IMG/VR virus record: IMGVR_UViG_3300037483_000201
Length of the DNA stretch: 54,968 nucleotides
Source of the DNA: a virus
Strand: one strand, 5' to 3'
Shown: positions 10,120 through 54,968 of the stretch, in pieces
Position numbering within the stretch: position 1 is the stretch's first letter
How the letters are laid out: every line of letters starts with the position of its first letter
Notes under the pieces: model-generated
Told to the model about the DNA's origin: nothing
The model's input: only the letters and a program-made list of their open reading frames with translations
The model's database searches: none
Translations under genes and position numbers: made by a program

Positions 10120-10121
10120 GG

Positions 10122-12062: not shown

Positions 12063-12126
12063 GATTGATCTCCGTTATAATTCAAGTCATTGGAGTAAGG
12101 CCGCCCTGATGGCGGCCTTGGTTTTG

Positions 12127-12588: not shown

Positions 12589-12647
12589 GATAGTTCTCCA
12601 AAATAAATGAAAGGACAGGGGGCGGTTATGCCCCCGCCTTAATGGGA

Positions 12648-13694: not shown

Positions 13695-13728
13695 GGCAGT
13701 TCTCCTTGGTTAAATTTGTGGGTAGCCG

Positions 13729-14739: not shown

Positions 14740-14771
14740 GGATCACCTCATAAATAGCAGATGCCCTGCGC

Positions 14772-15482: not shown

Positions 15483-15492
15483 GTATTTTCTC

Positions 15493-17962: not shown

Positions 17963-17963
17963 A

Positions 17964-24003: not shown

Positions 24004-24108
24004 GTACAACACATTAAAAATCCATAATTTGGTAGCAGGGCCGCGAGTCGCACGCGGATCTGGTGCTTATGAGACACCTGAGATACTATTTCTCCACCCT
24101 GCGTCATT

Positions 24109-38540: not shown

Positions 38541-38618
38541 CTATTCCAGCGGATCAGGTAAAACCGGGTGGCCAATGAACAGGCCCGCGCCAACCAACCC
38601 GAAATAAATACCCTGCAT
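38541..38618 (-). CDS. 25-aa hydrophobic micro-ORF
   Basis: Hand translation gives MQGIYFGLVGAGLFIGHPVLPDPLE. The ATG shares a base with the giant gene stop (TAATG). Its TAG is in frame with the paralog A reading frame. Confidence 0.3.
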   Translation of the reverse strand: MQGIYFGLVGAGLFIGHPVLPDPLE

Positions 38619-41600
38619 TACTGTAGTACCAGCTCTACGTAACGCTGATTGAATCGCGCCATGGCCAACCGCATCTGGGCCTCAATCTGCTCCACGCGAT
38701 CCTTGTTACCGCTGTTTTCCGCCAATCGTTTTTGTTTGCGCAACTTGGCCAGCCGTGATCGAGTCAGTTTTTCCATACCGATCAGTTTGGCCTCTGGCGA
38801 TCCCTTGGCTTTGAGTTGCTCAGAACCCCGGAGTTCTTTAACTTGCTTGGCGGTGTATTGCACGTCGTCGGACCACTCATAATACCGTGATTGAAGTGCT
38901 CTGGAGGTGTCGTAACCGTAGAGCTTGCGTGCCATGGGCACTTCCTTCAGGGTAATCTCTTCACCAGTAACAGCTTTATGGGCGATGTTGAAAGAGTCAG
39001 CCACTACACGACCAGCGGACCCAGTACTGAAATCAACCAGCACGTCCATCCACTCCGGTGATAGATTGATCGTCCCTGGTCGTACTTCATCTCCGCCGCT
39101 CATGTCGTTCAGCCATTTTGTGATCGACTTCGATACTTCTCGGCTGTTACTCCAGTGTTGTTGATATTCCGGTTTCGGCACACCGAACGGCGAGGCTTCC
39201 GGTTTCAACGGCGCACCCGTCCAGATTTTGTTCTCGCCTATCTGGACCGCAGGGTCAATGATGGTTGGTGAAAAGGCCTGTAGTACAGTCCCTGATCCTA
39301 CCGGGTTGAAGGCGTCCGCAAAAGCAGAGGCTGTTTTGGCCGCTGATTTACTGGCATCAAACCGCTCCCCGGTCAACATGTCGCCGAACTGCTGCCCGAT
39401 CACATGCAGGACGTTGTATCCCCATGGCAGAGGGAATTTGAATACCGGCTGTTTCTCGCCCATGACGATCAAGTTCCTGGCCTTTTCGTAAGCCTGGATG
39501 TTGTCGTACAGATTCTCGCCGTCGTCGTCATCACCAGACATGGATCGGTTAAAGATATCCAGCATAACCGCAAATCCTATGGTGCCAACTGCCAGAGCCC
39601 GGCCTTTCTTGCTGTAAGCAAGGGCTTGTAACATCCTGATCTGCCCCTGGATACTTGCATTGTAAAATAGATACAGTGCGTTCATCATCGGCCCGGCAGT
39701 CCCTTTCCGGTTAAAATTGACTGTCAAATTCTTGGCCAGGCTGGCAGCGGCATCATCAGTGGCACCCAGTTCAACCGCTTTACGGAAAGCCGCTAATCGA
39801 ACGCCATTCTCAACGATGGTATTGTAGTCGCTAACGAATCTTGCGGCAGCGAAGATTGCGCCCTTGCCTTTCTCGGCCCGCATCCGCTCCATTTCCTTCC
39901 CCAGCTTGTGTTGACGATCAAGAACGTCTTTATAGTGATCCAACCATCCGGTTTTGCCGCCGGCCTTTCGGAACCGCTCAGCCCAACCAGCCCAATCGGT
40001 ATCCGTGCGCCCCTGTCTCAAATTCTGATACAACCCCTTCAAAGCGCCCGGGACCATTTTGATTACCTGCGTTTCAACACCTACCAACTCGGTATCGGTC
40101 ATATTATAAACCGCAGTCTGTATATCTCTGGCAAAGTTAGAAATCACGAATTCAGGCGACAATGATGTATTCAGGGTCGCCAGTATTCGGTTGACGCCAA
40201 GCAGGAAGCGGGTCAATTTACCCATATCGCCGTGGTCAAGGTTCTTCATGGCCTTGGCGATCCGCATGGCCTCTGGGCTGGATTCATTAAATGTCACAGT
40301 GTGGCCCACCCCTTCCACCTTGACCTTGAACTCGTTGTCGTATTCCCTTGGGTCGCTAACCATGCGGACCTCTCCATTAACAACAGCGGGCTGTCTTTTC
40401 TGGGTGTCTACAGTCCACAGTCCTGAATTCTGGGTATTTTTTGCGAACTCAAGGAACGCCTGCCCCACTCTGTTTTTCTCACTCCTGATGACCGTAGCTT
40501 CATACTGAGCAATGACGTTGGTCAGGACGTTGGTAACTGCTTTGTGGCTGCCTGTGCGCTGCCTCGACTCTTTCCCGCGGATATTAAAGCCTTGCCCCCT
40601 GGGTGGTAGTAGAGTCTTGGCTTCTTCACGCTTCAGCGGGACATACTTGGAATAGGTCTTATTCCACGCATCCACCTCTTCCTGAGTAATTAACCCGGTA
40701 TTCAGCATGATTTGAACTCGTTCCTGATTGATTTGATCTATTAGGGTGCCTACGTCCTGAAGCGCCTGGTTCCCGGTGTGTTGTCCAAGTATTGCCGCGG
40801 CGTCCGTGTCGCTCATACCAGACAAATCCGTATTATCTGCACGATCCGGGTTGATCCGCTTCAGGTAGGTATTGGCCTCTTGGGCGTGTCTGGCGTGCAG
40901 CCACCGGTCGATCTGGTCCATTTCGAGGCCGGTGTCCGCGCCTTTTTGCAATAGCGGCTGGATCCGATCTTCCTCGAACCGCTCTAACCTCTCCCCAGCA
41001 CGACCCAGCCAAATAGATTCACGTAGATAAGCGTCTTCAGCCTCTGTTACGCCCAAGTCACTCTGGATATGTTTCAGGTCGATGTACTTGTCCTGCAAAA
41101 CGTAACGGATCGGGTCCAGCCTGCGGGTGGCACGACGGAATATCTCAGCATATCCACGACTGGTTGGCTCAGTGCTATTGGGCTGTGTCGGTGGCTGGCC
41201 GCTTTCCTGTGTCTCAATCGCCTCCTGCCGCTCCCGTAACCGTCTTACATACGGCGGGTCGCGACTTTCTAACGATGTATTGAGCAAACCGCCTGTATAA
41301 TTAATTTGTGTAGGAGCTTCGCCCAAACTCAGCAACGGCTGTACCGGCGTATCCAACAGGCGATCAGTGATCCGGAGTATTTCTGATAATGCCGTCTCCG
41401 CCCTCTCTGGGAGTCCTAAGAATTTTCTGATTGCGGTAACAAATCGGCTCCATAGCGTGCCTCCTTTGTAAGGTATGCTCTCTAAATAATCCTGCATAGC
41501 ACGATTAGTAAGTGCCCATGAAACTAATTCACCAGTATCTTCCATGGCATTATGACCTTGTGCCACAACACGCTCTATCCGTTCGAGTTTATTGAAATCT

Positions 41601-44600
41601 CCTGCAGCGGCATTTATACGCTCAGTTAAATACCCAGCGATTTCTTTATGCACATCCTCTAAATCTGCAATGTTTTTATGCAGTTCTGTCTTTCCTGGTT
41701 GACCGCCGATATAAATGGCTGACTGCGTAACGGCGTGCAATAATTCATGTAAAACCGTTTCGTAAGAAGTACCCACTATCCCGGTTACATCAGCGCCTTG
41801 AACCCAGATATCGGTTTTTGTTGAATCATAGGCACGCCAGGTCATACCTTTCATCTTGCCTGCCAGCTGCGCATGAACCGGCTCACCTAGATGGGCTACC
41901 TTAAAATCGAACGATAACCCAGATTTTTCCATGCGCCGCAGTTGATTGGCAACACGAAAAGCGATCAGTCTGTAGTCGCTTGACGGGGCATTCTTACGAA
42001 TGAAATCAGCCGCCTCAATTGCGCTCTTACCCTCAACCCCAGACTGTACCTCCTGTGCCTCCTGGGAAGATGGATCGTTGTCTAATGCTCCCATTGAGGT
42101 ATTACGCAGCCCCTGTTGGTCGCGGTCTTTCATAGAGAACAGGATATTGGGGTTATCAGGTTCGGGCTGCTGCACAGGACGGAAGTCACCGGCGCGCAGG
42201 GCGAAGCGCTCACGTATCGGTACCACCTCGCCGTTCGTCCGCTCAATACCGGAATCATCGAATATCCATGGCGAGAATTCCCGCGTCATACGGGTAGTCT
42301 GCTGCAGCAGGCCGTTCAGCTTCTCCATGCCGGTGCCGGGCAGGTTCGGTAGTTCTTTGTCCAGCACAGGCGCCATCTCATCCTTGAGCCGGTCGATAAG
42401 CTGGCTGTCCGTGAGATCATCTTTGACCACGTCGGCGCGTTCACGCAGCGGCGCCATAGCAGGCTCGACGGCTTCATTGATGTAGGTTTCAATCTTCCGC
42501 TCGTTCACGCCGGCCCGGTACATCTCGTCCACCACGGCATTGACCCGCAGCGCCTCCATCTTCTGCCGCTGCTCGGGACGCTGCTTCTTCTCGAGCCGGT
42601 CCATCAGGCTGGTCACACGCGAGTCAGACATGGCGAACCGGATGTCAGGGTTCGCAGGGTCGAAGGTGCCACGGTTGCCGGTGGCGGATTTGATCTGCTC
42701 TGGAAACCTTACTGCGTAATAAGTTCCGTCATATCCCAAACCATTAGCATTTTTGATTATTAACCCATCGTGCTCACTTTTAGAAAAAATAGATGCGTAG
42801 TTTTTGAACGTGCTAGGTCTGCCCTTTGCGTCAATTATCATAGGATTTTCTATTTTTATATACACAGGGAATACAGACACTCCACTTCCTTGATTGGCGC
42901 TAACCCACTCCATATACCCCTCATCATAAAACTCATTATCGCCTGCTTGCCATAATTCTTTTTGAGATTTGAGTTTGTCTTGCCACCCTCTAGGCAGTAC
43001 ACTTTTTGCGTATACTGATGCTTCTTCAGAAAGAGACGTGAACCAAACGAGTTTATTTTTTTTGTCTGGTCTTGCAATCCCTGATGATCCTGCTTTAGTG
43101 GGATCAAAAACAGTAACATCAGCAGTCGTCCCATGATAAACAACCAGTGGCAGTCCCTGCTCATCCACCACCTTGGAGCCCTTGAACCAGTCGCGGAACG
43201 CCTTGGTATTGGTCTGCCGTTGCGCGGCCATGAACCGCCCCTGCGGATCCCGCGCCGTCTCCCCGGTCCGCGTCCCCACCTCGCCACGCTCGACCCGCTG
43301 GAACACGTCATCCGCTGATTGGAAGCCGTTCCCGCGCAGTGCATTGCCGAGGGCCCGGAAGAAGTTTCGTATCCGCTCGAACGCGGTGCGCAGGAACCCG
43401 CCTGCCTTGGTCCTCCCGTCCTTCCAGTCGGCGAACATATCAGCGACGGCCTCCTCGACCATCGCCTCCTCGGACAGGCCAAGGCCATCGTATCGCTCGC
43501 GGACGCCAGCCATCCGGTCAGTATCAGCCTTCGCCGCTTTCTCCAGGGTCCGCCACTCTGCTGCCCGGAGCAGGCCCATGTCCTTCAGAGCGTGGATGAT
43601 TTCATGGTTCATGGTCCAGGGCGCGTTCGGGGCCTGCATGGCAATCTCGATGAAGCCGCGCACGTACCGCCCATCGGCCTCAGATGCCTTGCCGTCCGCC
43701 ATGGCCTGGATGCGGGTCTTCAGGTTCAGCGCCACCTTGTCGGACATGCCAACCTGCTTGAGGCGGGCCTTGAGGTCCTCGACCACGTTGACGGCAACCC
43801 GGGCGAACTCGGGGCGCAGTGCGAAACGGATATCAGGGTTCGCAGGGTCGAACGTCCCGCGGTTGCCGGTGGCGGATTTGATCTGGGTGGGGGAGAAGGC
43901 GACGAAGTCATCGCGCTTGACACCGGAATCTGTCGTGCTGCTGCGGATGACAATCCCATCGTGCCCTGCCCGAATGAGCGAATTTCGTAGGGATTTCATC
44001 CGCGCCTCTATGCTGGACCCTTTCCTTTCGTTACCGGCCGACACGAAGGCGCTCCACCCGTCGTATTCCTTCGGGTTCTGGAGGGACAGGTAAACCGGTA
44101 CCGTTGCCGGGCGATCCTCCGACGGGACGCGAACGCGCTGAAACGGCTCGACCGCCGCTGGGTCGGAAGCAAACCAATGGCCCATGACGCCGCCCAGTCC
44201 GCCGCGCAATTTGCCGCTGAATGCCTCTATGTCTCGTGTCGTCCCGTGATACACCACCAGCGGCCGGCCCTGGCCGTCGACCACCTTTGATTTTCCGAAC
44301 CAATCTTTGAAATTCGAAGTTTCTGTTACGTCCCGCCGCAGCGAAAACATCTCCACGCCACGGTCTGTCTCGCGGGTCTCCACAGTGTTGAAGAAGTGGT
44401 CGAAACCTTCACGGATGACCTGGACTTCAGCGGCCTCTGGGTAGGGATAGGAGCCTTCCAGTTCCATGCCCAAGGCCGCGGCCGCATCCCAATAGTCCTG
44501 GGACACGATATTGGCGAGGTAGTCGTTGGATAGACCTTGATCCTGGAGTTTGGCGATGACGTAGCTCTCGAAGGACCGTGCTGTCATTTCCCGGCCAGTG

Positions 44601-47600
44601 GTCCAGTAATCCTTGGCTTTGCGCTCTAACATACCGGATCGTTGTTTCAATCTGGTCTTATTGACAGCCTGTGTAACAGTCTTGAACGCATCCACCATCT
44701 CTGGCCGTACACCTTCGCCCCGGAAATAGGGCTTCTCAGTCACAAAACCTTCCTTGTCCTGCCTCATCCTGGAGAAGTAATTATCGAGTGAATGCCACCA
44801 TTCATGAGCAAGCGATCCAGCCCCGGCCTTTTTCGTCAGGTTAATCACAACGGTGTCGGATTCATAATGTGCCGCTGCCGCACTACCGCCGGCACCCTTA
44901 CCGCCTGATCCTCTTGCGCCGAATGCCAATCCCAGCTCGCCGTTCAATGACAGTGCTTTCGATGGTATATCCAGAATTCCGGCCAAGTCCATCAGGGCGT
45001 CGTAGGCGTTATTTAAGTCCTGCTGACGCTTACCGCCTTCCACCCAGTTGCCGAACTGGACACCTTTGAATCCGAACGCCTCAGAGAACTGCTCCGGCGT
45101 GACATCGGCACCATTGCGATGATCGATACCAACACGCGGGGAATTCGTGTCTTTACGCTCACTGGGGATATCCTTGTACTGATCCAGCATGGCTTCGAGT
45201 TCTGCCTGGTGTGCTGCCTTGTACTCCCTGGCTTCCTTAATGGAAGCAAATCGCTTCAACTGAACAACCCGCTTGCCGATTTTCTTGCCGATGAAATACG
45301 GATCAGCCGTGTCGCCTCGCGTGGAGTAGATATCGAACCGTACTGTTTTCGATGACTCCGGTCCGGCTTCCATCCCGGCATACACCTTCTTAAATTTTTC
45401 AATGGCCTCAGCCCGCGTGTCGCCTTTTACAATCATGCTTGGCATATTGCTGAATGCCGTTTTCCTGGCGGCTTTCTCAACAGCCCATATGACCTTCGGT
45501 GTGCTAAATTTCTCTCCGGCATAGACAGAATATTCGCCCATGCTGACACGGAGGCCCTTGAGTGATTTTTCGTGACCGACGGCCGCATACAAATCTGCCC
45601 GACCACTAACGGTGTCGGCCACATTCCGGTACTCATTCCGTCCCAATAGCGTCCGTACCTGCTGCGCGGTCACTTCGCCGCTAAGTAACCGCTCGGACAT
45701 ATCACGGAGTCCACTAACCTGCTCTGCCCACTGCTTCAACTTCCAACTCTTTTTAGGTTTAACAGGTATTTCATCCCTGGCGGCGCGGACAAAGGCAACA
45801 GACCACGGGCTAGCACCTTCATCGATCAGTTGTTGGTAATCAGGCTCCGGCCATGACTCTGACAATGGACGTGCGGATATATCCACTCCTTTGGCATCGG
45901 CAAGGCGCTGTGCATAGGTATGTTTTTTTGCTCCTTGTAATACCTCACCGAAGTCATCGATTTTGTTTGTCTGTTTGGCTGGCTTTTCAGCCGGTTGCCC
46001 AATATTCGCTATCTTATCCGCAGCCGCAGTCAGCTTATCGGCGGACTCGGAGAGTTTATTGGCGGCGGTTGTGATGGGGTCGGCTGGTGCTAAATCTGAT
46101 CCGGGTCGTTCGCCCCCCGTGCCTTCCCGAGTTGCTGTAGTTTTCGCACGGTCGCCAATAACTCGCTCTGGCTCTGGTGCTTGAGCGGCTTCAATAACGC
46201 CTTGCGGGCGCTCACCTCGCGTTGTCCGCTGTCCTGCTTCTTCTCTGGTGTTTTTGTTATCATATAGTGCCGCCTCCGCCTGTTCAATTGTAGTGCCTAT
46301 ACCAAAACTAAAACCAGGCCCTGTATAGTTTAGACCATTTCCTGTGATAGTGACCCCACGCAAATAGTCTTGGGCCAGTTCCATAGCTTGCTGGAGTTCA
46401 CCGACATTATCATAATGGACATAGAACTCATCCCCGGAAACATGGAAAGCATCCCCCCCCACACCGGCATCACGAAAGGCATCACCCATGACGGCAATCA
46501 GCCGATCTCCGGCATCGTGTCCCATGTTGTCGTTTACCCACTTGAGACTATCGAGATCAACAGAGGCAATATTTTCCTTGGGTGCCCGTCCAAGCCATGC
46601 ACGATTAGATCCTAATCCGGTACGCTCGTCTGTCATCAGGGCGGTGCGCAACTCCTCGGCGTAGGCGCGGAGCTCAGCCGGATCGGTAATGTCCTCAAGC
46701 CTGCGGTCATAGATGGTGCGCTGTACATCGTCGCGGCGGGATGGTAGCGCTGCACTCTCTTTCGTCTCTGCATTGGTGATCAGTAGCGGATTGTCAGTCC
46801 CACCCTCAATGGTGCGCGGACCCATGAATCCGTCTTTGAGGTACCGGGTACCGTCACCACCCTCATAGATGTCCTGACCCTCAGAATTTTTCCCGATCTT
46901 GATTTCCTGATCTGGCTTTGTTCGTATCTCACGCCTGTCTTCATCTACCCGGCCCTCGACGGTCTCCCACATGCGGCCGTTGTACGAGATCCTGGCTACT
47001 TCTTTGCCGTCCAGGTAAACCTTAGCGCCGTCGCCAATACTGGACGCGCCAGCACCAGTCTGTTCACGGAATTGATCCCACTTATCCTGGGCATCAGCGA
47101 ACGATTCTACCGGGTAGCGCTTTCCGCGGAATTCGACCTCCATCTGCGCAACTGGCTGTGTCTCTGGTGCTGCCGCCTGCTTTACCAGTACCGCATTAGC
47201 TTGTGTGATCGCTTCTGCTTTACTCTTTACGGTGGCCAGCCCACCTTTCTCATCCCGGTACTGCCAGCGGCCGGCGCGCGCAGCGAGCTTACTTGCGCCA
47301 GGCTGGATAAGTCCGGCGGCGATTAACTCGGATTCGGTTTTGGCTGGTACTTCATGTTTTACTTTAACTAACTCTCCACGTGTAACATTTTGCTGATCTT
47401 CGATATCCACCTGTTTACCACGATTCTCATCGAAGATATCCCCGGCGGATTCAGCCGGGACGTGTTCCCGGCCTTTGCCAAGTTTCTGATCTACCTCGAG
47501 TTGTTTGTCGGCGAGGGTCTGGGCCGTGACTGGAGCGGCACCGAAGAGATCGGTTTCTACTTGGCCTGTCGGCGTTTCGGCTTGTACCCGTTTTTCTGTT

Positions 47601-49795
47601 GCAGGAGAAACAAGCGCAGGGCTTTCATTCGCGCGTCTTTGCGCGACGGCGCTTTCAAATCTTTCGAGGATGTCTTCATCGCTTATTTCCTGTATAGCAG
47701 CACGTTCAACGATATCTCTAATTGTATCAGAATCCAGCCCCATTTGCAGGCCAGCGTGCATTAAATCCAGGGCTTCACGCTCTTCGCCAGGCTCCAGGAA
47801 CACAGGATCCTGATCCTCTGTCAGCCAGGCCGTGTCCTCGGCATAAGCCGCATCCTCATATTGCTCGATTTCCGGGTTACGGACAGACTCATCCGCCAGC
47901 CAACGCACGGCCCTGGCCTCCCGTGCGGATAAAGGCTCCCCAGCGGCAGCTTTCTCAACCGCAGCCTGTAATTGCTCCGGTTTCATCCGGACCGTTTTAT
48001 CGCGCCGAAAGTCCGCCCACCAAGGGGCGTAAGGAACCCATGTGGTACGGCCGATCACCGGACCTGTGGCCTCATTCGGCCCGTCGTCATCCCGTCGCTC
48101 CCGTTGCAACTTCCCGCCCACCTCAGACCATCCGGCTTGATTTGCCATATTACGAAGAATATCGGCCTGGGTTTCGTCCAATGCGATAATTTCGCCCCTT
48201 GGGGTGCGCTCGCGCTTCGGTATCGTGGATTCTGTCTCAGGGATGGGTGCAGGGACAGGCTCAGGCAGCGTTGCTCCTGCGGGTTCTGGTTGGGTTATTT
48301 GTTTGGTTTCAAGGCTTCTACCGGCCGCATTCTCTTGTGTCTCGGTGAGCGCAATACCCATTTTCTCGGCCGCTTTTCTTCTTGCCGGCGTCAGAGATAA
48401 CTCTTCCGGCGACATGGGCACCTTGACCTTGGCGCCAGAGGCAGGCTTGGTAGTGTCTTCCTGGATCAGCTCCGCGATCTCGCGGTCTACCGGGTTCGCC
48501 AGGACGGATTCACCCGTTTCCGGGTCGGTGATCCGCGTGGGGTCCGGCATCTCTTCTTCCAATGGAACCAGTTCAAGGGGCTGTGTTACTGCGGTGGTGG
48601 CAGCGTCAATCGCGGCGTCCACGGTTGGCTGCTGGAAGATGTCCTGAGCAACTTTTCCAGGTTCTTTGTCGGCTTTCCTGGCCGCTTCGGCTTCTTTTAT
48701 TAAATCTATCGGTTTCCGTGTTTGTATGGCATTTTGCGCATATACTGACCACTGTTTCGCATAGGCCGGGTCAACTTCTTTCAGGGAGGCGGCTACCAAG
48801 CTGGCGGCCTTTTGACGTTCTTCGGGTTTGCTTTCTGGGTCTGCCAGCGTGTCCCTGATCAGGTTGCGTTGCTGATACTGAATAGGCAGTCCGACCATCC
48901 CCAGTACGGAGGTCATTACTGCGGTGGGGCCAATAACGTGTTTGGCTGCCTCAAGCGGTGAGGTGTCGGTAATACCGGCAGCGCGTTCCACGGCGGTTTG
49001 CCCTGCCGCTTGACCAATCTCTGTCCCGATCTCAATTCCGTAAGTTTTGGCCATGGCCTTGCCAAATTCTTTTAATACCTGCGGGTTTGCGTAGGCTTCC
49101 AGTACCCCTTGCGCGGTAGATTTCCCGGCCGCTTTGGAGATGATCCGTCCGGCGGTCCCAAATATTAAGCCAAGCCCGGCTGTTCCTAAGGTTTCGCCGA
49201 GAGCCTCAATCGTCCCGGTTTTCCAAGCAGCAGACCTAGCCTCTGACTCTGTTAACCCGGCCTCAACCCCGCGCTCCAAAGTATCTTGGGCCTGTGACAG
49301 TCCGAACAGTGCACCACCCGCGCCGCTGGCCAGTGTTAAGCCGGCGATTCCCTGCATCCCAGGAATTGCCATTAATGCCATTGGGGTCACTGACGGCCCA
49401 ATCATCTCCAGTCCTTCAGTGATCGTTTGGCTTACCGCCCCATGGCCTTCTGGTTTTGCTTTCAGCCCCGGCAGGTCACCATACATCTTCCCGACATTAC
49501 GTAAAGATGTGCCGATCTCGTACAACGTGCTACCCCAAGGATCTTCGCCCTCAGGGGCTTCCCCGACCAATTGCGCAGCCCGACCAGCCATCTGTGGGGC
49601 CTCGGACAAGAAGCCCCTGGCCAGAGCTTTACTCCACTCTGAAATATTGCTGGTGGGCTCTGGGGGATTAAAAAGTTGAGTGAATTTCTCGCGGGGGACA
49701 TCGGAGTAGTAACGCTGGTGCAGACCAACCGTGAGTTGATCGTCATTCAGGTCATCGTATTGCGGGTATTGGGTGCGGAACTCGCTGATATTCAC
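38618..49795 (-). CDS. giant polyvalent virion / ejection protein (3,725 aa)
   Basis: A single uninterrupted ORF with a GTG start. Domain motifs are listed in the following 'other' features. Gly-rich hydrophobic segments lie near the N-terminus, and there is a TM at about aa 3400. Confidence 0.9.
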   Translation of the reverse strand: MNISEFRTQYPQYDDLNDDQLTVGLHQRYYSDVPREKFTQLFNPPEPTSNISEWSKALARGFLSEAPQMAGRAAQLVGEAPEGEDPWGSTLYEIGTSLRNVGKMYGDLPGLKAKPEGHGAVSQTITEGLEMIGPSVTPMALMAIPGMQGIAGLTLASGAGGALFGLSQAQDTLERGVEAGLTESEARSAAWKTGTIEALGETLGTAGLGLIFGTAGRIISKAAGKSTAQGVLEAYANPQVLKEFGKAMAKTYGIEIGTEIGQAAGQTAVERAAGITDTSPLEAAKHVIGPTAVMTSVLGMVGLPIQYQQRNLIRDTLADPESKPEERQKAASLVAASLKEVDPAYAKQWSVYAQNAIQTRKPIDLIKEAEAARKADKEPGKVAQDIFQQPTVDAAIDAATTAVTQPLELVPLEEEMPDPTRITDPETGESVLANPVDREIAELIQEDTTKPASGAKVKVPMSPEELSLTPARRKAAEKMGIALTETQENAAGRSLETKQITQPEPAGATLPEPVPAPIPETESTIPKRERTPRGEIIALDETQADILRNMANQAGWSEVGGKLQRERRDDDGPNEATGPVIGRTTWVPYAPWWADFRRDKTVRMKPEQLQAAVEKAAAGEPLSAREARAVRWLADESVRNPEIEQYEDAAYAEDTAWLTEDQDPVFLEPGEEREALDLMHAGLQMGLDSDTIRDIVERAAIQEISDEDILERFESAVAQRRANESPALVSPATEKRVQAETPTGQVETDLFGAAPVTAQTLADKQLEVDQKLGKGREHVPAESAGDIFDENRGKQVDIEDQQNVTRGELVKVKHEVPAKTESELIAAGLIQPGASKLAARAGRWQYRDEKGGLATVKSKAEAITQANAVLVKQAAAPETQPVAQMEVEFRGKRYPVESFADAQDKWDQFREQTGAGASSIGDGAKVYLDGKEVARISYNGRMWETVEGRVDEDRREIRTKPDQEIKIGKNSEGQDIYEGGDGTRYLKDGFMGPRTIEGGTDNPLLITNAETKESAALPSRRDDVQRTIYDRRLEDITDPAELRAYAEELRTALMTDERTGLGSNRAWLGRAPKENIASVDLDSLKWVNDNMGHDAGDRLIAVMGDAFRDAGVGGDAFHVSGDEFYVHYDNVGELQQAMELAQDYLRGVTITGNGLNYTGPGFSFGIGTTIEQAEAALYDNKNTREEAGQRTTRGERPQGVIEAAQAPEPERVIGDRAKTTATREGTGGERPGSDLAPADPITTAANKLSESADKLTAAADKIANIGQPAEKPAKQTNKIDDFGEVLQGAKKHTYAQRLADAKGVDISARPLSESWPEPDYQQLIDEGASPWSVAFVRAARDEIPVKPKKSWKLKQWAEQVSGLRDMSERLLSGEVTAQQVRTLLGRNEYRNVADTVSGRADLYAAVGHEKSLKGLRVSMGEYSVYAGEKFSTPKVIWAVEKAARKTAFSNMPSMIVKGDTRAEAIEKFKKVYAGMEAGPESSKTVRFDIYSTRGDTADPYFIGKKIGKRVVQLKRFASIKEAREYKAAHQAELEAMLDQYKDIPSERKDTNSPRVGIDHRNGADVTPEQFSEAFGFKGVQFGNWVEGGKRQQDLNNAYDALMDLAGILDIPSKALSLNGELGLAFGARGSGGKGAGGSAAAAHYESDTVVINLTKKAGAGSLAHEWWHSLDNYFSRMRQDKEGFVTEKPYFRGEGVRPEMVDAFKTVTQAVNKTRLKQRSGMLERKAKDYWTTGREMTARSFESYVIAKLQDQGLSNDYLANIVSQDYWDAAAALGMELEGSYPYPEAAEVQVIREGFDHFFNTVETRETDRGVEMFSLRRDVTETSNFKDWFGKSKVVDGQGRPLVVYHGTTRDIEAFSGKLRGGLGGVMGHWFASDPAAVEPFQRVRVPSEDRPATVPVYLSLQNPKEYDGWSAFVSAGNERKGSSIEARMKSLRNSLIRAGHDGIVIRSSTTDSGVKRDDFVAFSPTQIKSATGNRGTFDPANPDIRFALRPEFARVAVNVVEDLKARLKQVGMSDKVALNLKTRIQAMADGKASEADGRYVRGFIEIAMQAPNAPWTMNHEIIHALKDMGLLRAAEWRTLEKAAKADTDRMAGVRERYDGLGLSEEAMVEEAVADMFADWKDGRTKAGGFLRTAFERIRNFFRALGNALRGNGFQSADDVFQRVERGEVGTRTGETARDPQGRFMAAQRQTNTKAFRDWFKGSKVVDEQGLPLVVYHGTTADVTVFDPTKAGSSGIARPDKKNKLVWFTSLSEEASVYAKSVLPRGWQDKLKSQKELWQAGDNEFYDEGYMEWVSANQGSGVSVFPVYIKIENPMIIDAKGRPSTFKNYASIFSKSEHDGLIIKNANGLGYDGTYYAVRFPEQIKSATGNRGTFDPANPDIRFAMSDSRVTSLMDRLEKKQRPEQRQKMEALRVNAVVDEMYRAGVNERKIETYINEAVEPAMAPLRERADVVKDDLTDSQLIDRLKDEMAPVLDKELPNLPGTGMEKLNGLLQQTTRMTREFSPWIFDDSGIERTNGEVVPIRERFALRAGDFRPVQQPEPDNPNILFSMKDRDQQGLRNTSMGALDNDPSSQEAQEVQSGVEGKSAIEAADFIRKNAPSSDYRLIAFRVANQLRRMEKSGLSFDFKVAHLGEPVHAQLAGKMKGMTWRAYDSTKTDIWVQGADVTGIVGTSYETVLHELLHAVTQSAIYIGGQPGKTELHKNIADLEDVHKEIAGYLTERINAAAGDFNKLERIERVVAQGHNAMEDTGELVSWALTNRAMQDYLESIPYKGGTLWSRFVTAIRKFLGLPERAETALSEILRITDRLLDTPVQPLLSLGEAPTQINYTGGLLNTSLESRDPPYVRRLRERQEAIETQESGQPPTQPNSTEPTSRGYAEIFRRATRRLDPIRYVLQDKYIDLKHIQSDLGVTEAEDAYLRESIWLGRAGERLERFEEDRIQPLLQKGADTGLEMDQIDRWLHARHAQEANTYLKRINPDRADNTDLSGMSDTDAAAILGQHTGNQALQDVGTLIDQINQERVQIMLNTGLITQEEVDAWNKTYSKYVPLKREEAKTLLPPRGQGFNIRGKESRQRTGSHKAVTNVLTNVIAQYEATVIRSEKNRVGQAFLEFAKNTQNSGLWTVDTQKRQPAVVNGEVRMVSDPREYDNEFKVKVEGVGHTVTFNESSPEAMRIAKAMKNLDHGDMGKLTRFLLGVNRILATLNTSLSPEFVISNFARDIQTAVYNMTDTELVGVETQVIKMVPGALKGLYQNLRQGRTDTDWAGWAERFRKAGGKTGWLDHYKDVLDRQHKLGKEMERMRAEKGKGAIFAAARFVSDYNTIVENGVRLAAFRKAVELGATDDAAASLAKNLTVNFNRKGTAGPMMNALYLFYNASIQGQIRMLQALAYSKKGRALAVGTIGFAVMLDIFNRSMSGDDDDGENLYDNIQAYEKARNLIVMGEKQPVFKFPLPWGYNVLHVIGQQFGDMLTGERFDASKSAAKTASAFADAFNPVGSGTVLQAFSPTIIDPAVQIGENKIWTGAPLKPEASPFGVPKPEYQQHWSNSREVSKSITKWLNDMSGGDEVRPGTINLSPEWMDVLVDFSTGSAGRVVADSFNIAHKAVTGEEITLKEVPMARKLYGYDTSRALQSRYYEWSDDVQYTAKQVKELRGSEQLKAKGSPEAKLIGMEKLTRSRLAKLRKQKRLAENSGNKDRVEQIEAQMRLAMARFNQRYVELVLQ
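41398..42028 (-). other. HExxH module 3 of the giant protein (aa ~2590-2800)
   Basis: SYETVLHELLHAVTQ, with His2683 at 41747-41749. The module is locally AT-rich. Confidence 0.55.
42635..43213 (-). other. ART-like module 2 (aa ~2195-2387)
   Basis: FRDWFKGSKVVDEQGLPLVVYHGTT..LVWFTS..VYIKIENP..HDGLIIKN..QIKSATGNRGTFDPANPDIRFA. Confidence 0.5.
43348..43798 (-). other. HExxH module 2 (aa ~2000-2150)
   Basis: PWTMNHEIIHALKDMGLL, with His2064. Confidence 0.5.
43811..44323 (-). other. ART-like module 1 (aa ~1825-1995)
   Basis: FKDWFGKSKVVDGQGRPLVVYHGTT..GHWFAS..VYLSLQNP..HDGIVIRS..QIKSATGNRGTFDPANPDIRFA. Confidence 0.5.
44398..45133 (-). other. HExxH module 1, polyvalent-protein-type metallopeptidase-like domain (aa ~1555-1800)
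   Basis: FGFKGVQFGNWVEGGKRQQDLNNAYDALMDLA..LGLAFGARGSGG..AAAHYE..INLTKKAGAGSLAHEWWHSLDNYF. Confidence 0.6.
46228..46678 (-). other. GGDEF-fold nucleotide cyclase-like domain (aa ~1040-1190), SGDEF variant
   Basis: DERTGLGSNRAW..IASVDLDSLKWVNDNMGHDAGDRLI..FHVSGDEFYV..FSFGIGT..AEAALYDNKNTRE. SGDEF is aa 1120-1124, at 46424-46438. Confidence 0.7.
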
Positions 49796-49810
49796 AGATA
49801 GGCCCCTGTG

Positions 49811-50902
49811 TTATTTCTTCAGCCAGGCTTGCAGTTGCTTCCGTCTTTCGTTACTGATATCCCCTATCCTGGCAACAAGCCCGACCTGATAGGCCAGATA
49901 TTCAGTTGCCTCTTTGGGAGAGTCAGGGAATGTGCCGTCGGCAATCATTTTTTCAATCCTTGTTTTTGCGGTAGCGGCATCCCTTTCGTCCATATCAAGG
50001 AAGCGATTTGTTAACCCCTGGCGTAGTTTACCCAGTGCCTCGGTCCCCTTGGAACGGAAGACCCGACTGGGTTCATCCCCGTTTTGCGCCTGGTTGTTTA
50101 TTTCGTTATTTGTGATACCGCGACTGTTTCTTTGCGGGGGCTCTGCACCGCTTTCCAGCTCCTGGATGCGCCTTCTCAGATCCTCAATAATTTTACTTGA
50201 GCTGTCGTCGTTCGGTACTTCTGTCGGTTCTTCGCCAAGTAAAGCCCTGATGCCAGCCGGGTCATTATCTGTATTCGTGTCTGGCGTAGAGAGCGTCTGT
50301 ATAACCTCACCCTCGTCCAGGTCGTAGAGAATGTCCGGGTTCTTGATAATTTGCCCCATCTCGTCTTGAGTCTGCCCGCCGTCTACACGAATGATATTAC
50401 GTTTCTGCCCAGTAGCCGAGCGGTATTCCCTTGCCGCTTTATTTCTCTCATCGTCTGGCAAGCTCTTATCAAACATGCGGCCACGAAGTCCTGACAGCAG
50501 CTCCTGATCTTTTAATTCCATCCCGGCTATTTTTGCCCGAATATCGAAGTTTTCCACTTCTTTCTCTGTGCGTAGTTTCTCCAGATCAAGGCGCTCTTGC
50601 TGCAGGCCAATGGTCTGCTGATCTGTCCGTCTTCGATAGGCCCGATCATCGGCTTGTGTCGCTCGGTCCATCACCCTTTCGCCAAAATCTTCCATGCGCT
50701 CCAGTCGTCTTTCTGTCCGGTCTTCTTTTCTGATTTCGCCTTGGTATTCACGCTCTTCCTTGGTACGCTGCGTCTCATATTCCTGCAGCTTCGCCAGACG
50801 ATCATTCGTGATCTGCTCTTGCTGTTTGGCATAGGCCCACTGCTGCGTGACCGGAGCCATACCCTTGAAGGCTTTGCCGATAGCACGACCGATATCCATC
50901 AC
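49811..50902 (-). CDS. highly charged ejection-module protein (363 aa)
   Basis: E/R/K/D-rich helical sequence, directly upstream of the giant gene. Confidence 0.65.
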   Translation of the reverse strand: MMDIGRAIGKAFKGMAPVTQQWAYAKQQEQITNDRLAKLQEYETQRTKEEREYQGEIRKEDRTERRLERMEDFGERVMDRATQADDRAYRRRTDQQTIGLQQERLDLEKLRTEKEVENFDIRAKIAGMELKDQELLSGLRGRMFDKSLPDDERNKAAREYRSATGQKRNIIRVDGGQTQDEMGQIIKNPDILYDLDEGEVIQTLSTPDTNTDNDPAGIRALLGEEPTEVPNDDSSSKIIEDLRRRIQELESGAEPPQRNSRGITNNEINNQAQNGDEPSRVFRSKGTEALGKLRQGLTNRFLDMDERDAATAKTRIEKMIADGTFPDSPKEATEYLAYQVGLVARIGDISNERRKQLQAWLKK

Positions 50903-51462
50903 GCACCCCCTGGTGGTTGCATAGCGCCGTTAACAACACCCGGGTGTGGTGCCTGTGGCGGTTGCTGTGTTGCCATGGGTTGCCCGCCTGGCTGCATCTG
51001 TTGCCCCTGCATTCCCTGCATCTTGGCCGCCAGTTCATCCTGGGGGACGCCGTACATCTGTAACAAGCCCTGTGTCACCAGCCGCATGGTTTCCTGTAGG
51101 CCCTGCTCATCAAGAGGATCAATAGTCCCGGATACCTCCCCAAGCTCTGTCACGTACATCATGATCTTCAGCGCCGTGGGGATCACCGTGGATTCCGGCA
51201 CCCCCTTGGCTTTCTCCCTAAGAATAGACATGATCTTCAAAGTGACCTCAGAAACGGCCTGCTGTGGATCGTCACTCGCGGATTTATACAGCTTCATAAT
51301 CCCGGGGTGAGTTTTCTTGTCGTACAAGAGTTGCAGGGCGGCCAATTCCATGCGCTTGGAGGCATCCTGCTCTTCGGGTGTCCCCTGATCGGCTTGCGCG
51401 GGCTGATCTTGTTCGTTCAACATTTCAGGGGTTTCCTCTGGGGGCTGTACTGTCTGTTGCAT
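50899..51462 (-). CDS. ejection-module protein (187 aa) with Q/P/G/M-rich C-terminus
   Basis: ATGA junction. The C-terminal sequence is MQGMQGQQMQPGGQPMATQQPPQAPHPG. Confidence 0.6.
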   Translation of the reverse strand: MQQTVQPPEETPEMLNEQDQPAQADQGTPEEQDASKRMELAALQLLYDKKTHPGIMKLYKSASDDPQQAVSEVTLKIMSILREKAKGVPESTVIPTALKIMMYVTELGEVSGTIDPLDEQGLQETMRLVTQGLLQMYGVPQDELAAKMQGMQGQQMQPGGQPMATQQPPQAPHPGVVNGAMQPPGGA

Positions 51463-51465
51463 GGT

Positions 51466-52566
51466 CTAACCTCCGACTCGCTTGTTGAGTATCCCGTTAG
51501 TGAACACGGGCTGATCCGTGCCACGGTAGGTCAATGTTCTTGGGCCGGTACGCGTTCCGAAATTGACACCCCCTACTTGCCTGTTGGCGTTCTGACGATT
51601 CCGCCTGTCTTCGTCTTCCTGATCTCTTAATTGCTGTTGATCTTCCATAATATCTATCTCGTCCGGGGACAGTGCGCCGCCGATTGCGTTGATGGCCTGG
51701 TTAGCCACGGTTGGATATTTATCCAGAAATTCCAATATGCTCTTACCGGAAGCGATGGCACTGTTGACGATTCCTCCTGAAGACCCAGCCATTGTCGCCG
51801 GTGTCAGCGGGGCAGCCACAGCGGAGGCCGGAATTGCTTCTAATCCCAGCAGTCCAGTGGTAGCCCCTGCTGCTCCGGCTACCGCCCCCCCTACCCCCAT
51901 GCCTGCCGGGGTTAGCGGTGCGGCAATTGCGGAGGCCGGGATCGCTTCAATACCAAGCAATCCAGTGGTTCCGGCGGCAGATCCGGCGCCAGCCCCTGCT
52001 GCACCAGCACCAGCGGCAGGCGCGGCAAGAGCCTGTAGAGCACCATAGCCCCCCACAATCGCCACACTTCCAAGAATGCCATATTTAATGGCATTACTAA
52101 ATATACTGGGTTGCTCGGACGGTGGGGATCGGGTAAAGCCCATCCAGTTTCTATTTTCATTATTATAATCAAGCAGGCTTATCTCCCCTTTCTGGAATTT
52201 CTCCCATGCGGGTAACATGCCACGACGGATGGTTTGCTTTGATGTGCGGCCAAAAGGCATCCCTTCCTCTGGGGGCTCCTGCGCGAATGGATCGCTGGGA
52301 TTAAGTCCCTCAACTACAATATATTCAATGTCTCTGGCGTTGGCCTGCTGCCCCTTGGGGCCAAATCCCTGGGTATAAGTACTGCCGCCCTGTATATTCT
52401 TTGTCTGCTGTTCATTAAGCCTTGCCGCAGACTCTTCAGGCGTCATTTTTCGAGAACCTCGCGGCGAGTACCCTTCTCCAGATAAAAGCGCAAGGGCTTC
52501 TAATGCATCGGGGCTTAAGCCCGCCTTTTGTTGCTCAGTGAGAGCCACTATCAGGACCGCCTCCAT
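51466..52566 (-). CDS. ejection-module protein (366 aa) with Gly/Ala-rich hydrophobic repeats
   Basis: TTGLLG(I/L)EAIPASA(I/V)AAPLTPA is repeated 37 aa apart. The C-terminal ~100 aa is paralogous to the 99-aa protein upstream. Confidence 0.65.
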   Translation of the reverse strand: MEAVLIVALTEQQKAGLSPDALEALALLSGEGYSPRGSRKMTPEESAARLNEQQTKNIQGGSTYTQGFGPKGQQANARDIEYIVVEGLNPSDPFAQEPPEEGMPFGRTSKQTIRRGMLPAWEKFQKGEISLLDYNNENRNWMGFTRSPPSEQPSIFSNAIKYGILGSVAIVGGYGALQALAAPAAGAGAAGAGAGSAAGTTGLLGIEAIPASAIAAPLTPAGMGVGGAVAGAAGATTGLLGLEAIPASAVAAPLTPATMAGSSGGIVNSAIASGKSILEFLDKYPTVANQAINAIGGALSPDEIDIMEDQQQLRDQEDEDRRNRQNANRQVGGVNFGTRTGPRTLTYRGTDQPVFTNGILNKRVGG

Positions 52567-52850
52567 CGCTGGTTGATGATCCCCATCGGGCTGGTGGCGA
52601 TCCCGGACTGATCCATGAATTCCTTGCTTGTCTCGCCTTCACCTAAACGTATATCACCAACCATACGGTTTTCGTTCTGACGCCTAAGATCCGTGTCTTC
52701 GCGTTTGCGCCGCAGATCCTCTCTCTTCCGCATGATATCCAATTCATCGGGCGAAGCCATCCCCGCAACCGCGGAGACACCAAGCGATGTCACAAAAGGA
52801 TGATCACCAAGAAAATCAAATACTTTGCCGATGCCGTCGAGTATGCTCAT
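52551..52850 (-). CDS. 99-aa protein paralogous to the C-terminus of 51466..52566
   Basis: SILDGIGKVFDFLGDHP..ASPDELDIMRKREDLRRKRED..RQNENRMVG compares with SILEFLDKYP..LSPDEIDIMEDQQQLRDQEDEDRRNRQNANRQVG. Confidence 0.6.
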   Translation of the reverse strand: MSILDGIGKVFDFLGDHPFVTSLGVSAVAGMASPDELDIMRKREDLRRKREDTDLRRQNENRMVGDIRLGEGETSKEFMDQSGIATSPMGIINQRWRRS

Positions 52851-52853
52851 GAT

Positions 52854-54623
52854 TTATCCCGTAGGTGCTAAATAAGAATCTTCAGTTGTTGGGGGTGGTG
52901 CCCTGTAAGTAGAGGTGGTGTCTTGCGTGTTACCACCCGTAATATTCAGAATATCACCAAAATCCACCCCCGCGGCGGATCCGAATATATCCATCCCAAG
53001 CTGTAAGAGCTCTATCTGCCTGTCCACCAGTTGTTGTTTGGCATCCAGCGTTATATCCCCGTTCGCCAGCACCTCGCTGATATCGGAGCTGGTCTGTACG
53101 AATAATCTGGCCGCAGAATCAGACGCCTGCATCAACATCTTGTACTGTGATTCCACACCAGCGATTGATTCTGCCTGCGTGCCGCGTAGCTCTTGTAATT
53201 CCTTCTGCAGATCATTGGAATTATTACTGATCAACAACTGTGAATCCAATTGCGCCTTCTGCATATCAACGTCTATCTGACGCTGTTTTTCCGCCAGAGA
53301 TTCCCTGGTGGCGATATCCGCTGTTTGCATCTCGCGCTGCAGAACATCATTCATTTCCGCCAGAGATTTTTGCTGGTCCAGTTGTGCCCCCAGCAGTCCT
53401 GATTCTATTCTCCCCTTCTCTCTAGTCAGTTCTATGGCCTGCTCACCTTGGGCGGACAACAACCTCTGTTCAACCCCTTCTTTTTCTCTCAGCATTGTTT
53501 GCTCGAACTTTTGCCTCTCGGACTGTAATGCCTTATCGTTCTTAAACATAGCGTCGATCTGTGTCAGCCTTTGAGCGCCCTCAAGATTAGCCAGGTCACG
53601 ACTTAGAGTATTTTGCTGATCTGCCAGATCCCTTTGCGCCTTCAGTGAATTGAACTGCAACTGCTTGTCTATCTCTCCTTGTTTTTCCGCCAGAGATTCC
53701 CTGGTGGCGATATCCGCTGTTTGCATCTCGCGCTGCAGAACATCATTCATTTCCGCCAGCGATTTTTGCTGGTCCAGTTGCGAGCTTAACAGTCTGAATT
53801 CTATTCTCCCTTTCTCCCTCGTCAGGGCAACAGCCTGCTCGCCTTGTGCAGTCAACAACCTTTGCTCGATCCCTTCCTTTTCTTTCAACATTATTTTTTC
53901 GAAGTTCTGCCGCTCTTCCTGTAATGCCTTATCGTTCTTAAACATAGCATCGATTTGCGCCAGCCTTTGAGCGCCCTCAAGATTAGCCAGGTCACGACTT
54001 AGAGTATTTTGCTGATCTGCCAGATCCCTTTGCGCCTTCAGTGAATTGGACTGCAACTGCTTGTCTATCTCTCCTTGGCGGTTTAACAGGGCGGTTCTAG
54101 TTGCCGCGTCAGCGGTCTGTAATTGTAGGTCGATCTCGCCACGTTCCGATTGGAGCCGGGACTGCGCTTCAGTTTGCGTTCCTATGGTGGTGCGCTGTTG
54201 CTCTCCGGTAGCACCTATCTGCTGTAGCGCCTGCTCGCCTGCGGTACGTTGCCCTCTGGCTTGGTTGATACTGCCGGCGCCGAACTGGAGTGCTTCATTC
54301 CCTGCGACTGCGTTGAATTGTTTGGTGCGGCCATAGATATCCGCATCCTGTTGCGCAATTGGTAGAGCGTTACGGATCACTGCGTTCTGTCCGGCCTCTA
54401 CCCCCATTGTGGTGTTCAGGAGGCCGCGCTGATTAGACGCTTGAGAGGCCTGGGTGCGGCTTAATTGCGACAAAGGACTATCTTCAGCCATCACGCCTCT
54501 TAACTGGCCGGCCACCGTGTCTGTTTCAGGGTCGATCCCGATCTTGTTTGGATCATACCCAGAAACCTTCAGATCGTCGTCGTCAATCAGTGAATTGATT
54601 ATCCCGTTTTTACTTGCTGGCAT
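52854..54623 (-). CDS. Q-rich coiled-coil ejection / structural protein (589 aa) with an internal tandem duplication
   Basis: 132-aa units at aa 168-299 and 300-431, plus a partial third unit. Confidence 0.7.
   Translation of the reverse strand: MPASKNGIINSLIDDDDLKVSGYDPNKIGIDPETDTVAGQLRGVMAEDSPLSQLSRTQASQASNQRGLLNTTMGVEAGQNAVIRNALPIAQQDADIYGRTKQFNAVAGNEALQFGAGSINQARGQRTAGEQALQQIGATGEQQRTTIGTQTEAQSRLQSERGEIDLQLQTADAATRTALLNRQGEIDKQLQSNSLKAQRDLADQQNTLSRDLANLEGAQRLAQIDAMFKNDKALQEERQNFEKIMLKEKEGIEQRLLTAQGEQAVALTREKGRIEFRLLSSQLDQQKSLAEMNDVLQREMQTADIATRESLAEKQGEIDKQLQFNSLKAQRDLADQQNTLSRDLANLEGAQRLTQIDAMFKNDKALQSERQKFEQTMLREKEGVEQRLLSAQGEQAIELTREKGRIESGLLGAQLDQQKSLAEMNDVLQREMQTADIATRESLAEKQRQIDVDMQKAQLDSQLLISNNSNDLQKELQELRGTQAESIAGVESQYKMLMQASDSAARLFVQTSSDISEVLANGDITLDAKQQLVDRQIELLQLGMDIFGSAAGVDFGDILNITGGNTQDTTSTYRAPPPTTEDSYLAPTG
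53259..54122 (-). repeat. 396-bp coding tandem repeat, ~2.2 copies
   Basis: ccgccagagattccctggtggcgatatccgctgtttgcatctcgcgctgcagaacatcattcatttccgccag recurs about 396 bp apart. Confidence 0.85.
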
Positions 54624-54638: not shown

Positions 54639-54968
54639 TCAAATATTACCCATTATGTAAATCCCGCCCAGCCACAAGATCCTTTCAACCCACATCTGGA
54701 GCGTGTTGGAGGCGCGCTCCTGTCTTAATGCGCGCTCCAGGTGTTTCGCTTCTTCTTCCCGGCGCTCAGCTTCCATTGACCGGTGGATCAGGGCATCAAC
54801 CAGGCTGTTGTTGTTTCTGGCCCTGGATTGATTCTCGCTCTCAAGCGCCTGTTTCATTGCCGCCAGATTATCTTTGTCCTGCTCGGATTGCTGGAAGTCA
54901 TCTTCCGACATGCAGATTTTGTCCCCGCACCGCTCGACATTCAAAGCGGCTATGTGGTAGGGGAGGGT
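54639..54968 (-). CDS. u-spanin-like lipoprotein, C-terminal part (continues from 1..165 across the junction)
   Basis: The ORF-track entry 54639..54944 is the same frame. There is a coiled-coil region and the C-terminal TM MWVERILWLGGIYIMGNI. Confidence 0.6.
   Translation of the reverse strand, partial: TLPYHIAALNVERCGDKICMSEDDFQQSEQDKDNLAAMKQALESENQSRARNNNSLVDALIHRSMEAERREEEAKHLERALRQERASNTLQMWVERILWLGGIYIMGNI
54639..54968. repeat. Direct repeat copy B, first half
   Basis: Aligns with 38082..38411. 54915..54968 also duplicates window positions 1..54 (circular or terminal overlap). Confidence 0.85.

Follow-up and report, generated by a model that had tools for sequence, protein, structure and literature searches.

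Results

Gene, genome and domain composition

The DNA analysed here, the 54,968-nucleotide (nt) IMG/VR virus record IMGVR_UViG_3300037483_000201 (the window), carries on its minus strand a giant gene whose product, a putative polyvalent protein, is the subject of this work. According to the open reading frame (ORF) list and the translation, the gene is a single uninterrupted ORF of 3,725 codons encoding 3,725 amino acids (aa). Positions 1-54 and 54915-54968 of the window form an exact 54-bp terminal direct repeat, and because both ends share these identical 54 bases, the window is a complete phage genome of 54,914 bp that is either circular or terminally redundant. The giant gene occupies 20.4% of it, so that the single ORF of about one fifth of the genome reported in a preliminary description of this DNA is confirmed. 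The gene starts with GTG, AGGGG is located 7 nt upstream, and the stop codon of the preceding gene lies 15 nt before the start; a simple scan found no terminator on the 3' side. A chance ORF is ruled out by the 3,725 codons with six family matches.

Comparison of the giant gene and 25 kb of the genome with 50,697 phage records by megablast gave no match, and the closest match of the portal protein (36.5%) belonged to an uncultured phage; on these two grounds the phage lineage is called new. The exact giant protein was absent from the contig index on look-up. Word-indexed protein searches returned only 3, 16 and 2 matches, and the exhaustive search covered a single module of the protein, the HEIIH module.

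Like the polyvalent proteins defined by Iyer et al. (2017), the giant protein combines unrelated enzymatic domains in one polypeptide and is encoded beside virion genes. All Pfam domains found in it (LPD5, LPD1, LPD38, two copies of ART-PolyVal, and GGDEF) score above the curated cut-offs, and their occurrence within one ORF upholds the polyvalent-protein assignment made in the preliminary description. When the modules named there were checked segment by segment with profiles, these same domains gave the significant matches, and every motif position quoted was borne out on re-reading of the translation. The HExxH motif occurs exactly three times, while 0.04 occurrences are expected from composition.

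Comparison with ~170 giant proteins revealed that the parts of the protein are shared very unevenly: the C-terminus recurs in 52 of them, the ADP-ribosyltransferase (ART) modules in 25, the HELLH module in 14, the LPD5-HExxH-LPD1 block in 12-17 and the GGDEF domain in one (P0099). Proteins sharing the C-terminus carry differing cargo. Since the ends recur among giant proteins whose middles differ, the protein reads as a conserved frame, composed of an N-terminal domain, the HELLH module and the LPD38-containing C-terminus, with an exchangeable middle of ~2,200 aa set between the first two. As judged by domain matches, the predicted cargo consists of an SGDEF-type cyclase, a block of LPD5, the LAHEWWH module and LPD1, and two ARTs flanking the HEIIH module. 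The coordinates of the features are presented in Table 1.

Table 1 Features of the giant gene and of the genes directly upstream (window positions)
Feature	Residues (aa)	Position	Strand	Basis
Whole gene: polyvalent protein, last of late (virion) operon	3,725 in total	38618..49795	-	ORF list, translation, zero Cys
N-terminal frame domain	1-400	48596..49795	-	Identity to P0001-P0003
Conserved block, inside acidic linker (aa 400-1040)	547-724	47624..48157	-	P0001 identity
GGDEF nucleotide cyclase domain	1040-1196	46208..46678	-	Pfam, PDB 4wxo_A, phrog_5594
DFGE region, N-terminal extension of LPD5 block	1268-1424	45524..45994	-	Conservation
LPD5 domain	1425-1573	45077..45523	-	Pfam PF18799, E 1.6e-44, full length
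LAHEWWH module, metallopeptidase-like, including LPD1 (aa 1725-1808)	1554-1808	44372..45136	-	CLCA_X, Pfam LPD1
ART-PolyVal domain 1	1840-1982	43850..44278	-	Pfam PF18760, full length (profile 1-140/140)
65-nt junction repeat copy 2, ART1 3' end		43821..43885	.	Direct repeat
HEIIH module, all-helical HExxH...EE	1995-2180	43256..43813	-	Exhaustive search, AlphaFold (AF2) model
ART-PolyVal domain 2	2211-2378	42662..43165	-	Pfam PF18760, 75.9 bits alone, E 7e-21
65-nt junction repeat copy 1, ART2 3' end, encodes QIKSATGNRGTFDPANPDIRFA		42633..42697	.	Direct repeat
HELLH module, part of frame	2587-2815	41351..42037	-	Homology to LUZ19 gp37
C-terminal frame	2897-3725	38621..41107	-	phrog_616, tblastn, Foldseek
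LPD38	3428-3621	38933..39514	-	Pfam E 1e-39
Four upstream genes	589, 366, 187, 363	49811..54623	-	Composition, synteny

The conserved frame

The N-terminal domain is 54-57% identical to the N-terminus of a giant protein, P0001, whose cargo is an InPase domain, and 25-29% identical to those of two others (P0002 and P0003), both of which also carry a HELLH-type module or LPD38. The Gly-rich hydrophobic segments placed at about aa 120-310 by the preliminary description correspond to Gly/Ala-rich segments at aa 128-306 (nt 48878-49414); the Kyte-Doolittle maximum, 1.71, falls at aa 283-306. In the acidic linker that follows, the conserved block is 33% identical to aa 715-897 of P0001; no Pfam model matches it.

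The link between the frame and a solved virion protein is provided by the HELLH module (motif at aa 2683), which matches aa 327-557 of PDB entry 9sfn_G (phmmer E 7e-19, profile E 9e-35). This chain was identified via tblastn as gp37 of Pseudomonas phage LUZ19, a protein annotated as an internal virion protein and component of the DNA ejectosome, and gp37 itself has an HExxH at the position aligned with HELLH. In phiKMV-like phages, the class to which LUZ19 gp37 belongs is the T7 gp16-like inner-membrane ejection protein. Thus, by homology, the HELLH module belongs to the frame of a putative ejection protein and is not cargo. An AlphaFold model of aa 2587-3725 (pLDDT confidence 73.6) places three strands before the HELLH helix; a Foldseek search of the PDB with this model returned nothing better than E 1.

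The C-terminal region of ~850 aa with a transmembrane segment near aa 3400, as originally outlined, proved to be a frame of ~830 aa with a weaker hydrophobic segment at aa 3397-3420 (nt 39536-39607; Kyte-Doolittle 1.29). These ~830 aa match phrog_616 (E 8.6e-241) and, by tblastn, 348 phage records, including Ralstonia, Vibrio and Bacillus phages. In Foldseek searches of BFVD, the C-terminal frame matched (TM score 0.6-0.66) the C-terminal portions of viral 'large polyvalent proteins', which elsewhere carry lytic transglycosylase, RelA/SpoT or methylase domains. The compared giant proteins repeatedly show hydrophobic segments at distances of 130-330 aa from the N-terminus and of ~330 aa from the C-terminus; the two hydrophobic regions of the giant protein, at aa 128-306 and 3397-3420, would be in keeping with a predicted role in an inner-membrane ejectosome.

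The exchangeable middle

The first cargo module is a GGDEF domain. The GGDEF fold suggested at about aa 1040-1190 was recovered by Pfam (PF00990) at aa 1078-1183 with 39.5 bits against a cut-off of 23.8; in addition, the domain matches phrog_5594 (E 2e-21) and 19 PDB GGDEF chains at E<=0.01 (4wxo_A, E 4e-7). The DxLTGLxNR, DLDxxKxVNDxxGHxxGD and GG(D/E)EF signatures align with those of solved diguanylate cyclases. The active-site loop is the SGDEF variant, located at aa 1120, and the alignment also retains DLDxLKxVNDxxGHxxGD and ALYxxK. GVGG stands in place of the RxxD inhibitory site (I-site), which would be expected five residues before the active-site motif. The I-site is regulatory and is not needed for catalysis.

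Is this cyclase peculiar to the present phage? A scan of IMG/VR revealed at least ten contigs (L004-L013) encoding a GGDEF domain 33-41% identical to it, located 235-1,413 residues into open frames of 1,363 to >4,435 aa; for eight of them this distance is 750-1,051 residues. The YHxSGDEF variant is kept in 8 of the 11 relatives examined, namely P0099 and seven of the ten IMG/VR ORFs, and looks like the mark of a distinct phage-borne GGDEF subfamily.

The second module begins with the DFGE region. The DFGEVLQGAKK stretch mentioned in the preliminary description is present at aa 1281, and the region around it is conserved (IEDFGExLxGArKh...) across 10 giant proteins and matches no Pfam model. 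LPD5 and the LAHEWWH module follow, with FGFKGVQFGNWV at aa 1574, LAHEWWH at aa 1662 and LPD1 detected by Pfam at E 1e-19. Over aa 1554-1804, the NCBIfam family CLCA_X matches at E 3e-38 and 131.6 bits, which is under its curated cut-off of 260. Five residues of the module (H91, E92, H95, E163 and E170) are the same in all 7 homologues compared. Neither a match to the Pfam MPTase-PolyVal model in the giant protein nor, by profile search of PDB sequences, a solved relative of the LAHEWWH module was found.

The two ART-like modules proposed earlier are both sustained by Pfam: ART-PolyVal scores 140.7 bits, and copy 2 alone 75.9 bits, against a cut-off of 31.2. VVYHGT occurs at aa 1847 and 2218, and the two copies are clear paralogues (pairwise test, z = 37). 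Both keep the residues and motifs S, K, D, G, P, VYH, DG, QxK and NxGT, which are invariant in ten family members. Among these are the His of VVYHGT and the invariant DG. A weak Arr-ms match (E 0.09) was also obtained. Profile search of PDB sequences found no solved relative of the ART modules.

Each ART is followed by the peptide QIKSATGNRGTFDPANPDIRFA, at aa 1986 and 2382, and a related NPNILFS stands at aa 2548. The two 65-nt repeat copies that encode it are spaced 1,188 nt apart and are 92% identical; they differ at five positions, all synonymous, and the 21 junction residues are identical. A similar junction motif borders the modules of a giant protein of Nitrococcus mobilis Nb-231 (P0021). 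The junction peptide may mark the border of a cassette, or a site of recombination or cleavage.

Between the ARTs lies the HEIIH module (motif at aa 2064). With E<=1e-3, the exhaustive search recovered 2,336 cluster representatives, almost without exception within proteins of 2,000-5,500 aa. The H, E and H of the motif and an EE pair ~50 residues downstream are invariant. No Pfam model covers the module, even in proteins made of little else. Its AlphaFold model (pLDDT 76.9) consists entirely of helices; a Foldseek search of the PDB with the model gave nothing better than E 0.5, and the HEIIH profile matched no PDB sequence.

The preliminary description had counted three peptidase-like modules. 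This holds in part for one of them: among the three HExxH modules, only LAHEWWH resembles a named peptidase-like family, at a score below the cut-off, while HEIIH and HELLH do not. Pairwise tests gave no support for kinship among the three (z <=1.2).

The late operon and cysteine avoidance

The late operon lies on the minus strand and runs across the circular junction in the order TerS, TerL, portal, capsid, SU10-type adaptor (6705-7418), a 731-aa protein (4651-6846), a 577-aa protein, four cysteine-free proteins and the giant protein. The early region is lambdoid, with genes for Erf, an exonuclease, an O-like replication protein and NinB. No tape-measure or tail-tube gene was seen in the genome, which fits the reading of a short-tailed phage. 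A tRNA-Met gene (CAT; 24030-24103, minus strand) lies between the late and early regions.

The four proteins encoded directly upstream of the giant gene are of coiled-coil, Gly/Ala-hydrophobic, Q/P-rich and highly charged types and gave no family matches; judging from composition and gene order, they are likely to be other internal (ejection) proteins. The gene of the Q-rich coiled-coil protein (589 aa) contains a 396-nt (132-aa) tandem duplication at 53284-54077, the two copies of which are 89% identical. The Gly/Ala-rich hydrophobic protein (366 aa; 51466-52566) has an internal repeat, TTGLLG-I/L-EAIPASA-I/V-AAPLTPA, and is likely to be a membrane-active internal protein. Upstream of these genes, the 731-aa protein matches phrog_5107, annotated as amidase, over its aa 306-707 (E 2e-12) and may be a nozzle with a wall-degrading domain.

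Most of the same gene order is found in the contig that carries P0001 (L002; ENA contig ANAN16-1 scaffold_2000), at 29-52% identity; the 731-aa protein and its counterpart at the same position are 52% identical. Three of the four upstream genes are syntenic there, being 29-35% identical to genes before the giant gene of that contig; for the 363-aa gene (49811-50902), BLAST found no match in it. At 10001-18079 of this contig, the protein that shares the N-terminal domain is much shorter, at 1,595 aa, and an InPase domain takes the place of the cargo. The 1,096-aa protein that follows P0001 was considered as the missing C-terminal frame and rejected, as it matches neither the giant protein by BLAST nor the profile of its C-terminal frame.

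Cysteine is absent from all 3,725 residues of the giant protein and all 1,505 residues of the four upstream proteins (5,230 residues, 38618-54623), while the other ORFs of the window together contain 1.2% (1.4% without the four upstream genes). The compared giant-protein family as a whole has 63 cysteines in 432,555 residues, with nearly every member free of it, and Stx2-86 gp35 and Bcep22 gp75 have none. On composition, the absence of cysteine marks the five genes as a putative single functional set, and its avoidance fits a presumed passage, in an unfolded state, through the tail and the oxidising periplasm. No discussion of such avoidance was found in the literature returned by a text search.

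Comparison with known systems

How far is this architecture new? In none of the ~170 proteins compared was the exact domain order found. The nearest architectures, P0115 (3,701 aa) and P0156 (3,789 aa), combine the LPD5 block, ART-HEIIH-ART and the C-terminus and are without GGDEF, whereas P0099 has GGDEF and no ART. The claim of the preliminary description that the combination is undescribed therefore stands only for the exact string of domains: a GGDEF domain together with a metallopeptidase and an ART is listed by Iyer et al. (2017), who include GGDEF among the domains of polyvalent proteins and give the Acetonema longum protein WP_004096050.1 as GGDEF + SNF2 + methyltransferase (MTase) + MPTase + ART. 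The giant protein shares with this example the co-occurrence of GGDEF, an HExxH metallopeptidase-like module and ART, and differs from it in having no SNF2 or MTase. LPD38 is phage-specific (Iyer et al. 2017).

The giant protein of short-tailed Stx phages (phi24B gp47; Stx2-86 gp35, 2,783 aa; phrog_616) is likewise encoded by the last gene of the late operon and has no cysteine. Stx2-86 gp35 has both the DFGE-LPD5-HExxH-LPD1 block (37% over aa 1268-1856) and the LPD38 C-terminus (33%) in common with the giant protein; BLAST revealed in it no counterpart of the GGDEF domain, the ARTs, the HEIIH and HELLH modules or the N-terminal domain, and the protein described here is ~940 aa longer than the Stx-phage homologue. 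The phi24B protein (2,811 aa; LPD5, LPD1, LPD38) is abundant in virions by mass spectrometry, and a role as an ejection protein has been proposed for it (10.64898/2026.04.10.717836).

In the Lessievirus phages, Bcep22 gp75 and JC1 gp69 (4,515-4,602 aa) are also products of the last late gene, which there makes up ~22% of the genome, and JC1 gp69 (4,515 aa, 22.1% of the genome) is virion-associated by mass spectrometry (PMC9144972). Bcep22 gp75 shares the C-terminal frame (27%, E 4e-67), an HExxH just upstream of the frame and the lack of cysteine; the cargo of these proteins is different, and only the C-terminus aligns.

The class of LUZ19 gp37, Ar-KM gp43 and T7 gp16 is similar in that the largest and last of the internal-protein genes is concerned and an HExxH-containing stretch is homologous. 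Unlike in LUZ19 gp37, of whose 1,337 aa only ~230 align, the polypeptide is ~2.8x longer and contains an enzymatic cargo; neither a lysozyme nor a transglycosylase was found in the giant protein. Taken together, the Stx and JC1 homologues, the list of Iyer et al. (2017) and the ten IMG/VR contigs indicate that neither the size nor the genome share nor the presence of a cyclase is new.

Discussion

We interpret the giant protein, with a probability of roughly 0.8, as an ejection protein that resides inside the virion of a short-tailed phage of the lambdoid type and has grown into a polyvalent carrier of effectors. This interpretation is supported by the position of the gene as the last of the late operon, by homologues detected in purified virions and by the homology to LUZ19 gp37; together with the coiled-coil, hydrophobic and charged neighbours, it agrees with the podovirus ejection-protein setting recognised in the preliminary description. 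What the sequence shows are the identities of the domains, the position of the gene, homology to virion proteins known from other phages and the conservation of residues of catalytic type. From these we infer packaging, ejection, processing, enzymatic activity and targets.

The giant protein would be made late and packaged in the head with the four upstream cysteine-free proteins. At infection, it would be expelled through the tail, largely unfolded, and the frame would help to build or anchor a trans-envelope conduit, as gp16-like proteins do. The cargo would thereby enter the cytoplasm before any phage gene expression, possibly released by one or more of the HExxH modules, and would ADP-ribosylate host targets and make a cyclic dinucleotide, most likely cyclic diguanosine monophosphate (c-di-GMP).

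Several points weigh against this interpretation. The evidence for packaging and for delivery with the DNA is homology, to phi24B gp47 and JC1 gp69, and beyond the 231-aa gp37-like stretch neither profiles nor Foldseek connect the frame to a solved ejection protein. Cyclase activity and its product are uncertain, because the first Gly of GGDEF is Ser, the RxxD I-site is absent and dimerisation is required. The peptidase assignment of the LAHEWWH module draws on a sub-threshold resemblance to a family, with no structural support; since no solved relative was found with PDB profiles, its fold and that of the ARTs are assigned from family models, and an ART catalytic triad of the H-Y-(D/E) type could not be mapped onto a solved structure and is thus uncertain. 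Finally, the HEIIH module does not resemble a zincin, a fold that is not supported because the predicted model is all-helical and has no PDB match by structure or profile.

Should the enzyme-like modules then be regarded as inactive relics in a purely structural protein, that is, an oversized gp16-like ejectosome or head-filling protein? It is true that no part other than the frame is conserved throughout the family, that the GGDEF motif occurs in a degenerate form (SGDEF) and lacks the I-site, and that the HEIIH module has no recognisable enzyme fold. However, family-invariant residues of catalytic type are kept in the GGDEF domain, in both ARTs and in all three HExxH modules, and the 21 junction residues have stayed identical over five synonymous DNA differences. 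The SGDEF variant is itself conserved in 8 of 11 relatives, which argues for selection, and SGDEF enzymes can be active: ECA3270 and MbaA are reported to make c-di-GMP, whereas a G-to-S change inactivated the cyclase VCA0965. We therefore regard the purely structural explanation as improbable.

Another important question is whether the protein is packaged at all. In the manner of polymorphic toxins, of which ART and peptidase-like modules are also typical (general knowledge; see the comparison in Iyer et al.), it might act in the producing cell or after lysis, either as a late modifier of the host or as a toxin against competitors. Profile searches, however, found no signal peptide or secretion-system domain in the giant protein, its gene belongs to the virion operon and stands beside genes of likely internal proteins, mass spectrometry has identified homologues with the same C-terminal frame as virion proteins, and the giant protein is homologous to a solved internal virion protein. 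An action outside the virion is accordingly very unlikely.

The homology of the C-terminus to Bcep22 gp75, which, like its JC1 counterpart, is annotated as 'DarB-like antirestriction', could also point to a protein that protects incoming DNA by methylase and helicase activity; what is shared is the LPD38 frame and not the DarB modules, Pfam, NCBIfam and PHROGs yielded no methyltransferase or SNF2/helicase domain, whatever the threshold, and this identity, for which hardly anything speaks, was rejected for want of its defining domains. An N4-type virion RNA polymerase, which N4 gp50 brings to mind as a giant (~3,500 aa) gp16-like ejected protein delivering an enzyme with the DNA, was rejected on the same ground and has a negligible chance of being correct, as no match related to RNA polymerase was found in Pfam, PHROGs, NCBIfam or PDB sequences, no sequence similarity to N4 gp50 was detected, the predicted cargo is made up of enzymes for modification and signalling, and the early genes are of the lambdoid and not of the N4 type.

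Within the preferred reading, that of an ejection protein carrying effectors, a further proposal can be put forward only tentatively, and we hold it to be doubtful: the SGDEF cyclase would be active and injected with the DNA, so that a cyclic dinucleotide is made within seconds, before phage expression, and the NPDIRF junctions would be the sites at which the HExxH modules release the cargo. If this were true, the product would take over surface structures and motility controlled by c-di-GMP, and hence superinfection by other phages, or, alternatively, it would interfere with cyclic-nucleotide-based immunity. The YHxSGDEF subfamily would then constitute a distinct class of virion-delivered second-messenger synthases.

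The current picture of these proteins is left unchanged, because the homologous giant proteins of Stx and Bcep22-like phages are already known as virion components. Nevertheless, polyvalent proteins form a large group of phage weapons on which hardly any experimental work exists, and the present example is unusually clean: the complete genome is small (55 kb), frame and cargo are clearly apart, and the catalytic-type motifs are intact. It may thus be useful for asking by what means a protein of 400 kDa can be packaged and then pass through a short tail, whether the cargo is cut loose by HExxH modules, and how a virion-delivered cyclase and two ADP-ribosyltransferases affect the host during the first seconds of infection.

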